From UHGV virus genome UHGV-0094927: a stretch of 22,135 nt of DNA, one strand, 5' to 3'. The position numbers and the translations under genes are program-made. This stretch comes from a virus. Of the stretch, positions 18,738 to 22,096 are shown piece after piece. The stretch's first letter is position 1. Each line of letters starts with the position of its first letter. The notes below the pieces were generated by a model, which made no database searches, was not told the origin of the DNA, and saw only the letters and a program-made list of their open reading frames with translations.

Positions 18738-20237
18738 TTAAGTTCTCCGTGCGATGGGCCTGATTGGGGCTGGTATCTTTTTCTCTTTTGGTTTTTTGAT
18801 GTCGCGCATCATTTTGGCGAAGCGGCGCATCATGTATGCATAGCGAACGGCTGAGAGAACGTCGTCGTTAAGCTTGACGATTTTCCCGTTTTCATCACGG
18901 TGATAGAGGCGGAACTCCTCAAAGAATGGCTCACAGGTGTTGAATACTTTGAAGCGACCATCGAGCATCATGTCGCGCAATTCAGTGATGCCAGGCTCAA
19001 CAGCATTACCGCCATCAGGCCATGTCGCATGCTCCTGCAACATCATAAAACCAGCGTCCGCGTACTGCCCTTTAAGCTGCTCACCGCCGCCCTTCTCATG
19101 CTGGTTTCCGTCATGAGGCCATGCTGTTGGCACTTTATGCGCCCATGATTTAACCGCTCCCCATGCCTGAACGGCTGTTTTTTCTTTCGCCTTCCACACG
19201 CGTGAAACGTAGATTGTGTCTGCGTCCTTATCCCACCAAAGCTGAACCTGCGCCTGAGGGTGATCCCATCCGAAATCCATCCCGCCAATTACGTAGAAGT
19301 GATCAGGACACTCGAACGGCTGACACTTAATCGTCTCTTCCGGTATCTGGAAGATTCGCCCGCTACCCATCGTAGGAATACCGCGAGCACGCGCCTCTCT
19401 CTCATGCTCGGGATAGGATGCGATGATTTGCTCTTTCTGCTCGTGGGTGTAGTGCTCAGCGTCGTAGATGGTCATGTTGACCACTTTCTGCGACCTGCTG
19501 GGATTCTTCAGGAACTTGGTAACAACGTCAGACATCCCCATCAGCGGGGTAAACGTCAGAATTGAGAATTGCCCGTATTTGTTGGTACGGGTAAGACCTT
19601 CGCCATAAATGCTGTATGGTGGTTCTTCGTCAAACCACACGCCATGGATTGTGTCACCCTGCCAGCGAGCACGGCCTTGCGAGTATGGCTTGAAGTAGCA
19701 GATTGAAATGCCATCTTCAACGCCATCAGCCGTGTGATGCTTAACCAGAAGATGATCAACAAGGTTCGGAAAGAAAGGAGACTTCTTCCAGCTAATGATG
19801 TCTTCTTTCGGTATGGAACCGTAGCCAGGCTCATCATTCTCTTCGATACGACCGCACAGGATGCGTTGAGTCGTTTTGGTTACAGTCTCGTTTGTCTCGC
19901 CACCAATCCAGAAGACAACAGGCTCATAGAAACGCTTACCTTTCCACTCACCGCCATATTTACCATCAGCAGGATAGCCTTTTGTGCCCGGATAACGCCC
20001 TGTAAGGTGAAACGCGACTTCAGCAGCACCAGTAAATGACTTACCAAGCTGGTTACCAGCCATAAAACATCGCTCTGGATAGTCATGCCCGGCGTCGATG
20101 AACTCACGCTGTTTGCTGTATGGCGTAAATTCATATAGCAGGTGTGTGTTCCGGTAGTTCTCTTCTTCTTCGAGTAGCTCGAGCAATTCGATTTGCTCTT
20201 CGTCGCTCAGGTTATCAAGAATCGCGTCCAGTTCCAC
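18738..20237 (-). CDS. Terminase large subunit, P22 gp2-like
   Basis: 499 aa (P22 gp2 is 499 aa), acidic N-terminus [30 protein letters not shown]. The start codon at 20237 is GTG on the minus strand. Overlaps terS by 23 nt. Confidence 0.96.
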
Positions 20238-20703
20238 GGTTGAATAGCTCCTTGATACGAGAGCGTCGCTTATCGCGATCTCCCTTATCAGGTGTCACGT
20301 CTTCAACTTGCGACTGCTCTTTGAGGCCCAAATCACGGGCGATGATGTTAGCGTTGAGAAGGTCAGCGGCTGCGCCAGAGAATTTCTGGTCGTAGATGAT
20401 GTCTTCCGCTCGTGATGTGACGTCAGAAAAACCTTCCATTGACCGGAAGGTTCCCCATGTTTGCCTGGTGATATCAAGGAAGGTACACAATCCTGAAATA
20501 GTCATGGCTCGCATCTTAGGGACATTAGCCTTAATTATTTCTCCCTGATATGAAAATACCTTACCCTCCCATAGCGGGTTATCATCAGCCCACTCGAAGT
20601 ATTCACAACAAGCAGCCCACAGCGCCTCAGGCGATTCGAATTTAGGATTTCGCCCATGACTACTGCGGGCCTCCCAAAATCGGTTGCCCTTTGGTGCTGC
20701 CAT
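20215..20703 (-). CDS. Terminase small subunit, P22 gp3-like
   Basis: 162 aa (P22 gp3 is 162 aa), [38 protein letters not shown]...; ATG 20703 preceded by GAAGGGA. Confidence 0.92.
20408..20435 (-). other. Candidate pac (packaging initiation) site inside terS
   Basis: Minus-strand read GAAGGTTTTTCTGACGTCACATCACGAG in the central part of terS (codons for EGFSDVTSR) resembles, from memory, the P22 pac segment, which lies at the equivalent position of gene 3. Contains the palindrome TGACGTCA. Inference only. Confidence 0.3.
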
Positions 20704-20708
20704 ATTGA

Positions 20709-20798
20709 TTATTTCCCTTCTGCTTGCTTATCCCATTCATCGCGGAATTTGGATGGGTTGTCGAAGCCCTGAGAGCCTGAACAAACTTTGATTACCAT
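20709..20798 (-). CDS. Possible 29-aa micro-ORF between the Cys-rich ORF and terS
   Basis: ATG at 20798 preceded by AAGGAG (7 nt spacing), overlapping the upstream ORF stop (TAATG); encodes [29 protein letters not shown] and stops 5 nt before the terS ATG. Could equally be just the terS leader. Confidence 0.25.
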
Positions 20799-20992
20799 TA
20801 CTTAGCTCCTTTCTGCTTGCCTGTGTTTGATGTCGTTTCAGCAGCAGCCCCAGAGCAATTAACGCTACCCGCAACACCATATCCATAACCAGTCTTGAAG
20901 AAATTGCTGCCAGTAAATTGGTTAACAATCTTCCCGCAGCACGGGCAGCGTTGGCATTGGCAATAAGGGGATTGATTATTCCAGTGATACAT
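20798..20992 (-). CDS. Small Cys-rich hypothetical protein (about 64 aa from the internal ATG)
   Basis: Track ORF 20798..21067; from the ATG at 20992 it reads MYHWNNQSPYCQCQRCPCCGKIVNQFTGSNFFKTGYGYGVAGSVNCSGAAAETTSNTGKQKGAK, with a CxCxxCxCC cluster suggesting metal binding. Same strand and operon as the terminase genes. Confidence 0.35.
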   Translation of the reverse strand: MYHWNNQSPYCQCQRCPCCGKIVNQFTGSNFFKTGYGYGVAGSVNCSGAAAETTSNTGKQKGAK

Positions 20993-21365
20993 CTTGTTTC
21001 TCCTGAATGAATGGCAGGAAGTGATTAACCATCCTGTCCAGCATGTAACAGTACGTCTCGTTGGCATCTTCAGGCCTTGTCGTCACGCCGACATCAGAGC
21101 AAACGTAAAAGCAGACGTGGGCGCACTCATGAACGAGCGTAGCGATCTGCTGATCGAATACTCCAATCAGATAGCATCGCTCACCCGTATCAGTGTTTTC
21201 ATAGTTGCTTGCAAACCCAAGATTGAATGGCTTCTCATCCCCGCTGCCGCCAAGGAATTTATCAGCGTGCTGAAACTGTTCTCTGGTTGTTGCGAGGTAG
21301 ACATGTGCCCTTTGAAACAGCGGAATGGTGAACGCCGGGAGTTTGTGCCATTTGGCCTTAGCCAT
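20976..21365 (-). CDS. Hypothetical 129-aa protein with an HExxH motif (possible small zinc metallopeptidase-like protein)
   Basis: ATG 21365 overlaps the stop of the upstream ORF. Sequence contains ...IATLVHECAHVCFYVC... (H-E-C-A-H). No family recognised. Confidence 0.55.
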   Translation of the reverse strand: MAKAKWHKLPAFTIPLFQRAHVYLATTREQFQHADKFLGGSGDEKPFNLGFASNYENTDTGERCYLIGVFDQQIATLVHECAHVCFYVCSDVGVTTRPEDANETYCYMLDRMVNHFLPFIQEKQDVSLE

Positions 21366-21366
21366 A

Positions 21367-21621
21367 TCACACTCCAGCGGTGAACAGGTCTAACGCTTCC
21401 TTCGACTTACGCACCGCTTCGATAGTGCGGGTCGTGATATCTGAATTAGCGCCACCTGACTGGAAGTGAATTTTGAATAGCTCAAGCTTCAGTTCGTCAG
21501 TGCCAATGAATTGAAATGCTTCTTCTGCGGCTGCGTTCTGGTTCATGACCAGTTTGTAAATCTCTAACTGGAATTTCTGTTCTTCAGTCATGGGAATAAT
21601 CTCTGCCATTGTTGGCTCCAT
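21367..21621 (-). CDS. Hypothetical small acidic protein (84 aa; 80 aa if started at the second ATG, 21609)
   Basis: MEPTMAEIIPMTEEQKFQLEIYKLVMNQNAAAEEAFQFIGTDELKLELFK...; the second ATG (21609) has GGAG 7-8 nt upstream. Stop overlaps the start of the HExxH ORF. Function unknown. Confidence 0.5.
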   Translation of the reverse strand: MEPTMAEIIPMTEEQKFQLEIYKLVMNQNAAAEEAFQFIGTDELKLELFKIHFQSGGANSDITTRTIEAVRKSKEALDLFTAGV

Positions 21622-21713: not shown

Positions 21714-21739
21714 AATAAAAAAGGCCGCCTGAGCGACCT
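21714..21739 (-). terminator. Intrinsic terminator-like hairpin downstream of a small ORF
   Basis: Minus-strand read AGGUCGC-UCAG-GCGGCCU (7-bp stem with one G-U) followed by UUUUUUAUU; starts 10 nt after the stop (TGA, 21749-21751) of ORF 21749..21913. Confidence 0.45.
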
Positions 21740-21748
21740 GTTAGTTGT

Positions 21749-21913
21749 TCACAACTTGCATTGTTGAAGGTTCAGCATGTCGAAAAATGATCCGCATTTG
21801 GGGGTATTTTCCATTCTTGCCCTCTCTTCAGCCGCTTTGTAATAAGCCATTGGCCTTTTCACACCATCAGCACCAGTGATGTATTCAACACCTTCCTTCG
21901 GATCTTTACTCAT
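21749..21913 (-). CDS. Hypothetical small protein (54 aa from ATG 21913)
   Basis: The track ORF starts with TTG at 21937; the first ATG is at 21913 (MSKDPKEGVEYITGADGVKRPMAYYKAAEERARMENTPKCGSFFDMLNLQQCKL). Followed by a terminator hairpin. No homology recognised. Confidence 0.35.
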   Translation of the reverse strand: MSKDPKEGVEYITGADGVKRPMAYYKAAEERARMENTPKCGSFFDMLNLQQCKL

Positions 21914-21923
21914 AATCCAAACT

Positions 21924-22085
21924 CTAGTAGCGACCAAAAGTTGAAATATCTTTAAGAATTTTAATTTGTAAGGTGTTAAGGCGGTATTCTCTTTCCAATT
22001 CAGAAAGAATCACATCCTCAGCGACACTATTTCTAGCAGTATCAACTCCTAAGATAATAGCCAATGCCTGCATAAACTTTTTCAT
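21924..22085 (-). CDS. Hypothetical small protein (53 aa), below the ORF-track size cut-off
   Basis: Hand translation of the minus strand: ATG at 22085 with GAGG 7-10 nt upstream, MKKFMQALAIILGVDTARNSVAEDVILSELEREYRLNTLQIKILKDISTFGRY, stop TAG at 21924-21926. Confidence 0.3.
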   Translation of the reverse strand: MKKFMQALAIILGVDTARNSVAEDVILSELEREYRLNTLQIKILKDISTFGRY

Positions 22086-22096
22086 CACAACCTCGT

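Follow-up and report, generated by a model that had tools for sequence, protein, structure and literature searches.

A predicted minimal zincin of the Orf-129/HkcC family in a variable late-operon cassette upstream of terS in a P22-like prophage

Zincin-like metallopeptidases share a core that consists of a three-stranded sheet, an N-terminal helix, a helix carrying the HExxH motif and a second helix that supplies a glutamate ligand, and a role in host conflict has been proposed for the zincin domains encoded by mobile elements, among them the PolyVal MPTase domains of the ArdC C-terminus and of P1 DdrB (PMC5512222). Minimal zincins are represented by the SprT-like, Wss1 and Spartan minigluzincins. 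In the P22 group of phages, two proteins which turn out to be related to the subject of this study, HkcC and Orf-129, have been listed only as being of unknown function (PMC2629481, PMC4837284). Here we analyse the virus genome UHGV-0094927, a stretch of 22,135 nucleotides (nt) referred to below as the window, in which the late region of a P22-like (Lederbergvirus-type) prophage is read on the minus strand and whose nearest public DNA is found in Escherichia coli chromosomes (98-99% identity). The object of interest is a cassette of four small genes ahead of the terminase gene terS (Table 1), one of which encodes a protein of 129 amino acids (aa) with the HExxH sequence HECAH. We read the cassette as a dispensable accessory module of the late operon with a minimal zinc protease as its core, most likely directed against a host protein, and assign to this reading a probability of about 0.5.

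The 129-aa protein has named relatives in Salmonella P22-like phages, namely Orf-129 of ST64T and ORF47 of ST104, which are 60% identical to it over 124 residues, contain the same HECAH...NETYCY motifs and occupy the same place in the genome, the order being lysis genes, Orf80 homolog, Orf-129, a small gene and gene 3; they differ downstream, where ST64T and ST104 have a gene for a 134-aa protein and the window has a cysteine-rich gene and a micro-open reading frame (micro-ORF). HkcC of HK620 and P22 is 35% identical to the window protein (E = 8e-24) and has likewise kept HECAH and NETYCY, but its gene belongs to the ant moron, an insert of variable gene content ahead of the tailspike gene, and is flanked by gene 16/sieA on one side and by mnt or the tailspike gene on the other, whereas the window gene is located upstream of terS; no copy of HkcC was found in the window. 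The protein, which an earlier note on this DNA had failed to recognise, thus belongs to the Orf-129/HkcC family, which like Orf80/DUF2560 is a named but uncharacterised family of the P22 group. None of the four cassette proteins has a characterised function, as the same note held. In PHROG terms the protein matches phrog_1365 (unknown function) over residues 1-125 (E = 4.6e-37), and it reaches the threshold of no Pfam family. The family comprises 206 clusters at 90% identity in a single-sequence search and 873 representatives at 50% identity in a profile search; nearly all members are stand-alone proteins of 115-140 aa, almost all are named 'hypothetical', and no Pfam domains were found among them. 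The window protein has an isoelectric point (pI) of 5.4 and neither a signal peptide nor a membrane segment. Three chimeric proteins (P0113, P0047 and P0058) were also encountered: in P0113 an N-terminus similar to lambda NinF is joined, between ...CGQK and CAHV..., to the C-terminal half of the zincin, and in P0058 a different N-terminus is joined at the YL(I/V)GVFDQQ strand. The three probably arose by illegitimate recombination or deletion, the enzyme being destroyed in the process.

HECAH corresponds to residues 79-83. Among 35 close relatives, H79, E80, A82, H83, N102 and E103 are invariant together with several structural residues, and across 127 representatives with 24-49% identity to the query the invariant residues are reduced to H79, E80, H83 and E103. 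E103 lies 20 residues past H83, which is also the distance between His146 and Glu166 of thermolysin. The HExxH motif reported in the earlier note is therefore genuine, being invariant in 127 of 127 representatives and set in a predicted zincin-like fold, but the suggestion that nearby cysteine and histidine residues help to bind the metal was not sustained: C81, C85, C89 and C106 are conserved among close relatives only and are unlikely ligands, and the likely third ligand is the invariant Glu103. A confident AlphaFold2 (AF2) model built on the family alignment (predicted local distance difference test score, pLDDT, 85; predicted template modelling score, pTM, 0.81) contains strands at residues 20-25, 50-56 and 63-69, a backing helix at 28-37, a helix at 74-91 that carries HECAH and a helix at 103-127 that opens with E103. 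The predicted structure thus offers the HExxH motif on an alpha-helix, the conserved glutamate on the next helix and the three-stranded sheet with its N-terminal backing helix, and on this model the protein is very likely a genuine minimal zincin. A Foldseek comparison of the model, a check that had been proposed beforehand, returned nothing significant from the PDB, for which a sequence search also yielded a single, spurious match (E = 1.1); in BFVD, a collection of predicted viral protein structures, 27 small proteins matched at E <= 1e-3, encoded by phages of Pseudomonas, Ralstonia, Achromobacter, Erwinia and Acinetobacter, by crAss-like phages and by others, and the few of these proteins that are named carry the labels SprT-like, PolyVal metallopeptidase, IrrE or metalloprotease.

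These labels correspond to described families, none of which takes in the protein at its own threshold. The SprT-like model (PF10263) gives 12.7 bits against a cut-off of 25.6 (E = 0.12), only 4 of the 127 relatives match it at E <= 0.01, and hhalign of the diverse family alignment against E. coli YggI, which we take to be SprT, gives a probability of 4.9%. The SprT-like, Wss1 and Spartan minigluzincins resemble the window protein in being minimal zincins of similar size, and the records of some relatives are labelled 'SprT-like'; on the other hand, the third ligand is a histidine in Spartan and Wss1 and a glutamate here, and the window protein is acidic and has no DNA-binding region. For the anti-repressor proteases ImmA/IrrE (M78), which would be expected beside the helix-turn-helix repressor that they cleave, there is no Pfam match, no such repressor gene occurs among the neighbours, which comprise DUF2560, small cargo genes and terS, and the BFVD neighbour labelled IrrE has a TM value of only 0.35. 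The PolyVal MPTase domains have the same core as the model, one BFVD neighbour bears their name and both they and the window protein are encoded by mobile elements, but they are domains of giant multidomain proteins, whereas the window protein stands alone with 129 aa, and neither the query nor its relatives matched the MPTase-PolyVal Pfam family significantly. A known defence system was also considered, and no match to PADLOC-DB at E <= 1 was obtained with any of the four cassette proteins. As the curated families fail, we assign the protein to the zincin superfamily and, by sequence, to the Orf-129/HkcC family, and not to SprT-like, M78 or the RiPP hydroxylases.

The genomic distribution of the family bears on its function. 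In 101 loci from genomes and viral contigs, the HExxH gene lies between the lysis cassette and terS, in the order Rz, variable region, often DUF2560, HExxH gene, none to three small genes, and terS/terL of at least five unrelated types; DUF2560 and HExxH genes are reversed in L069-L073 and L086-L087, and DUF2560 is absent from many loci. The lambdoid phage mEp044 has the HExxH gene at the same position, and distant homologs (L117, L121) are found directly upstream of terS-like, terL and portal genes. The slot that follows Orf80 is empty in phage APC_JM3.2, where Orf80, micro-ORF and terS succeed each other, and is occupied by Orf59c in P22 and elsewhere by lysine-rich proteins of 46-69 aa, a 110-aa protein, proteins of 134-203 aa or Ig-like proteins. 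The view that the interval between lysis genes and terS is a slot for variable cargo, put forward in the earlier note, thus agrees with its differing contents across the 101 loci, P22 and APC_JM3.2. Among 5426 complete E. coli genomes the HExxH gene is present in 29, and phages with the same terS, terL and portal genes occur without it, so that it is not a core assembly gene. The lysine-rich family (MPLKKGKSKKVIGENIATEIKAGKP...KKKKGAK), which lies between the zincin gene and terS in L047 (4377-4514), L061, L078, L085 and L072 (4776-4925), has no Pfam match.

This position could alternatively reflect a phage-internal role linked to packaging, in which the protein would process a terminase, portal or ejection protein or would strip proteins off the DNA ahead of the terminase in the manner of the DNA-protein-crosslink proteases SprT/Wss1. 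The location immediately upstream of terS or terL of at least five unrelated types, the location of distant homologs beside an SU10-type portal gene, co-transcription and tight spacing with terS, and the weak SprT-like signals mentioned above would all fit such a role, as would the occurrence of the same predicted fold, according to BFVD, in an uncharacterised protein of Acinetobacter phage Loki, which we assume to be Loki gp24. Gp24 belongs to the replication module of Loki and has been linked to SprT-like and peptidase domains (PMC5313236). Most phages that share the terS, terL and portal genes lack this gene, however, the P22 paralog resides in the ant moron far from the terminase, the 129-aa protein is acidic and has no extra DNA-binding domain, and hhalign gives YggI a probability of only 4.9%, and we therefore regard a function in packaging as unlikely.

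With respect to expression, a consensus scan of the coding strand between 20500 and 22135 detected no promoter-like (sigma-70-like) site, and a terminator-like hairpin with a T-run precedes Orf80 at 21739-21722; the latter is weak evidence, because the count of such sites does not exceed the shuffle expectation. Together with the translational chaining of the genes, the missing promoter and the upstream hairpin point to expression within an antiterminated late transcript, a reading that leans on the established late transcription of P22. A moron is defined as an independently expressed insert in a phage operon (PMC2629481), and of its characteristics the zincin gene has presence or absence between syntenic relatives (APC_JM3.2, P22); a promoter and a terminator of its own were not found in the consensus scan, which gave no terminator between the cassette and terS. 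These results bear on a role as a classical moron, that is, as a lysogenic-conversion factor expressed from the prophage to exclude incoming phages, which the earlier note had proposed and which would accord with the variability of the slot, similar to that of moron sites, and with the location of the P22/HK620 paralog HkcC beside sieA in the ant moron, at a site with an annotated promoter. With its genes chained translationally into the late operon behind a terminator-like hairpin, no promoter-like site on its strand, no PADLOC matches and neither a signal peptide nor a membrane segment such as SieA-type proteins have, exclusion in the lysogen is disfavoured and appears distinctly improbable. 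A separate arrangement was seen in the N4-like lytic Pseudomonas phage phCDa, whose gp24 is a zincin homolog (L116, 2809-3171) that opens a run of small plus-strand genes divergent from the late/terminase cluster and may be expressed early in that lineage.

According to the favoured reading, the late-operon protease with a probable host target, the zincin would be a free-standing cytoplasmic metallohydrolase of about 120 aa in which the zinc ion is held by H79 and H83, both on the HExxH helix, together with E103 on the helix that follows, and E80 acts as general base. It would be made late in the lytic cycle alongside the packaging proteins and, as an active zinc peptidase, would cut a specific protein without having a role in virion assembly. 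The target would be a host protein, in the service of counter-defence or host manipulation, and the enzyme would act late in infection or after carriage into the next cell. Orf80, the 64-aa protein and the micro-ORF would be separate, independently shuffled cargo that is co-translated with the zincin without being an obligate partner of it. The sequence comparisons show an invariant zincin-type active-site signature, strong purifying selection, optional presence and a fixed slot; that the 129-aa protein works as a zinc peptidase on a specific target outside the virion structure is what we infer. A host target is favoured because the gene is dispensable and patchily distributed, because the P22 paralog HkcC is part of the conflict-related ant moron beside sieA, because a part in such conflicts has been suggested for the zincin domains that mobile elements encode (PMC5512222), and because Tad2-like anti-Thoeris genes share the interval in 7 of the 101 loci. 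The last point refers to genes matching PF11195 (E = 2e-24, 7.5e-30) within 1.6 kb upstream of a zincin homolog, one of which directly abuts it in L119 (3729-4004), with further examples in L005 (3408-3689) and also in L043, L056, L080 and L082; Tad2 stands for Thoeris anti-defence 2. The upstream 'Gp49 family' gene of L001 was considered as a further candidate and is not Tad2-like, as it belongs to PF13876 (Phage_gp49_66).

The contextual evidence for a host target is thin, and several points weigh against the reading as a whole. The functions put forward in the earlier note, a protease acting on a host or phage regulator or an anti-defence role, draw their support solely from context, namely from the Tad2-like neighbours. 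The association with Tad2-like genes concerns 7 of 101 loci only, which include many redundant ones; the anti-defence genes already described belong more often to the early genes; and the constant adjacency to terS could mean a packaging-related role. The putative zinc site is assigned from invariant columns and predicted helices, and no threshold of a curated family was reached by the 129-aa protein or its relatives. PADLOC gave no match, its library consisting of models for defence and not for anti-defence systems. The literature contained no biochemical or genetic data for any member of the family (PMC2629481, PMC4837284), and that on phage-encoded metalloproteases as anti-defence factors nothing matching the Orf-129/HkcC family. 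A more far-reaching version, in which Orf-129/HkcC proteins form a widespread and unrecognised class of counter-defence proteases that destroy a host immune protein, with the coupled 64-aa protein as a 'cysteine-switch' inhibitor in trans or as a zinc donor, is doubtful. Candidate targets would then be sensors that respond to terminase, portal or further late proteins or, should the virion carry the protease, a restriction factor of the newly infected cell, and the 64-aa protein would silence the protease until it is needed.

Whatever the target may be, a stand-alone zincin of about 120 aa is present in hundreds of phage lineages, including P22, HK620 and ST64T, without a name, a Pfam model or an assigned activity, and the invariant HExxH plus glutamate site turns a 'hypothetical protein' into a testable enzyme hypothesis. 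If a host immune protein were the target, a proteolytic mechanism would be added to counter-defence and the lambdoid interval between lysis genes and terS would be a place to seek further counter-defence genes; if it were a phage protein, an optional processing step in packaging would be revealed. For the two smallest genes of the cassette, the analysis indicates that automated annotation overlooks conserved coding sequence directly upstream of terS.

Table 1 Features of the terS-proximal cassette and its flanks in UHGV-0094927 (positions refer to the window)
Feature	Positions	Strand	Remarks
terL	18738-20237	minus	
terS, P22 gp3 type; downstream anchor of the cassette	20215-20703	minus	Pfam GP3_package, E = 8e-31; phrog_606
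29-aa micro-ORF	20709-20798	minus	AAGGAG ahead
Gene for basic Cys-rich 64-aa protein, CxCxxCxCC	20798-20992	minus	ATG 20992; AGGAG 7 nt ahead
Gene for 129-aa HECAH protein	20976-21365	minus	ATG 21365; GGAG ahead; phrog_1365
E103 codon, probable third zinc ligand	21057-21059	minus	start of predicted helix 103-127
HExxH codons, H79-E80-C81-A82-H83	21117-21131	minus	predicted helix 74-91
Orf80/DUF2560 gene	21367-21609	minus	80 aa from ATG 21609
Terminator-like hairpin and T-run	21722-21739	minus	about 110 nt upstream of Orf80; consensus scan

Inspection of the sequence showed the four minus-strand ORFs to be present where the earlier note had placed them. They are tightly spaced, as had been claimed: the stop codon of Orf80 (21367-21369) and the start of the 129-aa gene are separated by a 1-nt spacer, so that of the two kinds of start/stop overlap described there a true ATGA does not occur at this junction; the 129-aa and 64-aa genes overlap by 17 nt; the stop of the latter and the start of the micro-ORF have a TAATG in common, as described; and 5 nt lie between the micro-ORF stop and the ATG of terS. 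All four genes are preceded by a Shine-Dalgarno sequence.

Nei-Gojobori estimates of the ratio of nonsynonymous to synonymous substitution rates (dN/dS), obtained by comparing the cassette genes with diverged copies, are 0.04-0.08 for the 129-aa gene, 0.20-0.38 for the 64-aa gene, 0.05-0.36 for the micro-ORF (few sites) and 0.16-0.38 for Orf80 (dS near saturation), with 0.05-0.21 for terS as comparison gene. The 64-aa frame is kept in L004/L029 (88% identity), L043, L032 (63%) and L072 (47%). The order DUF2560, 128 aa, 63 aa and 30 aa is repeated in L032, whose 63-aa product differs from the 64-aa protein by an in-frame 6-nt deletion besides substitutions; of the 14 substitutions that L043/L030 show within the final 50 nt of the Cys-rich gene, most affect third codon positions; and in L072 the copy is 62 aa long and located at another position. 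The counts by codon position between the window and L004 are 4/4/7, a comparison of one pair of sequences only. The micro-ORF has an in-frame 18-nt deletion in L030, and in APC_JM3.2 a 23-aa version with its own ATG and the same core directly follows Orf80. In a 99%-identical E. coli prophage the Prokaryotic Genome Annotation Pipeline (PGAP) annotates nothing between the 129-aa gene and terS, so that the 64-aa gene and the micro-ORF are unannotated there; 64-aa products have been called in other public records (P0262, 90 member sequences), and neither the 64-aa nor the 29-aa product has a significant Pfam or PHROG match. The micro-ORF, which had been noted as a possibility, thus gains from its AAGGAG and from a frame kept across the 18-nt indel and in APC_JM3.2, and is left without annotation by PGAP. 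A plus-strand ORF of 129 aa (20994-21383) that mirrors the zincin gene exactly in antisense has no support and is most likely a codon-usage artefact of that gene.

Conservation in the 170 nt from 21020 to 20850 far exceeds that of the flanking sequence. A conserved RNA element was considered here, but there was no Rfam match at E <= 1 and the folding z-score of -1.29 is unremarkable; mosaic recombination accounts better for the pattern, the left junction of the recombined block falling within the 3' end of the HExxH gene. All four cassette ORFs are, on these sequence comparisons, best read as protein-coding genes. That they should instead be chance ORFs or decaying remnants without function, as might be thought from the unannotated segment 20709-20975 and from the two products without a significant Pfam or PHROG family, is hardly to be believed in view of purifying selection and frame-preserving indels in all four genes, of 873 clusters in the HExxH protein family, and of the lack of an RNA family match or unusual RNA folding by which the conservation might be explained otherwise; for the 129-aa and 80-aa genes it is largely refuted.

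The first gene of the cassette can be extended to an 84-aa ORF (21367-21621), and the second in-frame ATG, with GGAG ahead, gives the 80-aa form that PGAP picks in the 99%-identical E. coli prophage. Its product, which the earlier note had listed as unrecognised, is P22 Orf80, orf80 being the P22 annotation of the homolog, and matches Pfam PF10834 (DUF2560) with E = 1.3e-43 and 147.5 bits against a cut-off of 25 over the full model (1-72), as well as phrog_571. By sequence it is a plain DUF2560 member, a known family of unknown function, for which a literature search gave nothing relevant; that on P22 orf80 and terminase returned only the unrelated ORF80 of Sp5. The protein is acidic (pI 4.6), as had been noted, and its single-sequence AF2 model is all-helical with four helices and of low confidence (pLDDT 57). 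Orf80 was found in 899 of the 5426 complete E. coli genomes.

The third ORF is at longest 89 aa (20798-21067); the start kept in relatives is ATG 20992, at the position of which L030 has GTG. The 64-aa product contains the motif YCQCQRCPCCGK with C11, C13, C16, C18 and C19. Near 21020, inside the final 12 codons of the HExxH gene, the DNA identity to an Atlantibacter prophage (L004, 4342-4390 there) rises abruptly from some 65% to some 97% and stays high across the micro-ORF as well; the Cys-rich gene and the micro-ORF therefore move as one mosaic block together with the last 12 zincin codons. Among the complete E. coli genomes the full Cys-rich segment is present in 18 and the micro-ORF leader in 217, the latter being also the number of E. 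coli genomes that contain the last 70 nt of the micro-ORF. Orf80, the Cys-rich gene and the micro-ORF each occur without the zincin gene and the zincin gene without each of them, and these proteins are thus not obligate subunits of the zincin; of the conservation and co-occurrence that the earlier note wished to see checked, the frames are conserved in relatives, but DUF2560 and zincin do not form an obligate pair. As a candidate family for the micro-ORF product, DUF2740 was rejected, five variants scoring 12.6-13.5 bits against a cut-off of 27 with the same 14-residue stretch each time.

The motif YCQCQRCPCCGK is also present in a 74-aa Cys-rich ORF of L026 (1835-2059) that is otherwise unrelated: it has 92% DNA identity over 37 nt and nothing else in common with the 64-aa gene, and the series of small genes to which it belongs precedes a 777-aa ORF; this recurrence suggests that the motif is a small metal-binding module. 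The coupling of the two genes might also be taken to mean that the HExxH protein is a non-proteolytic enzyme which modifies the Cys-rich peptide, for example a hydroxylase of the aKG-HExxH type as in ribosomally synthesized and post-translationally modified peptides (RiPPs), or that the Cys-rich protein is its obligate regulator. The 64-aa gene does have its start codon within the 3'-terminal part of the HExxH gene, the last 12 codons of which belong to the same mosaic block, and the peptide beta-hydroxylase model TIGR04267 (mod_HExxH) matches 30 residues around the motif with E = 0.0074. This match attains 16.3 bits against a cut-off of 40, however, the Cys-rich gene is absent from most homolog loci and in L072 follows DUF2560 instead, the same cysteine motif occurs in the unrelated early-gene context of L026, and the fold and the invariant glutamate fit a zincin, all of which makes a modifying enzyme or an obligate regulator very improbable. 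For the favoured protease, an inhibitory counterpart may be imagined: Wss1-type minigluzincins are regulated by a cysteine switch (PMC4559962), and a trans-acting inhibitory role of the Cys-rich protein is therefore conceivable by analogy, although it is pure speculation.

Upstream of the cassette, ahead of the hairpin, two overlapping small minus-strand ORFs (21749-21937, 62 aa, and 21924-22088, 54 aa) match phrog_5425 and phrog_8360, both of unknown function (E about 1e-42). To the left of terL and terS lie portal, coat and ejection genes, followed by a tailspike gene (4495-6288) with the P22 head-binding domain. Between the latter and the gene that takes the place of P22 gene 16 (6453-8846), that is, at 6288-6453, there is no ant moron, and the 797-aa product of the gene in this position has an N-terminal SLT lytic transglycosylase domain (E = 2.8e-25). 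The far left of the window is occupied on the plus strand (50-4352) by an integrase fragment (50-682) and a gtr cluster comprising gtrA (1287-1649), gtrB for a family-2 glycosyltransferase (1646-2578) and, in the position of gtrC, a 596-aa ORF without a Pfam match; this region is probably a conversion module that modifies the O-antigen.

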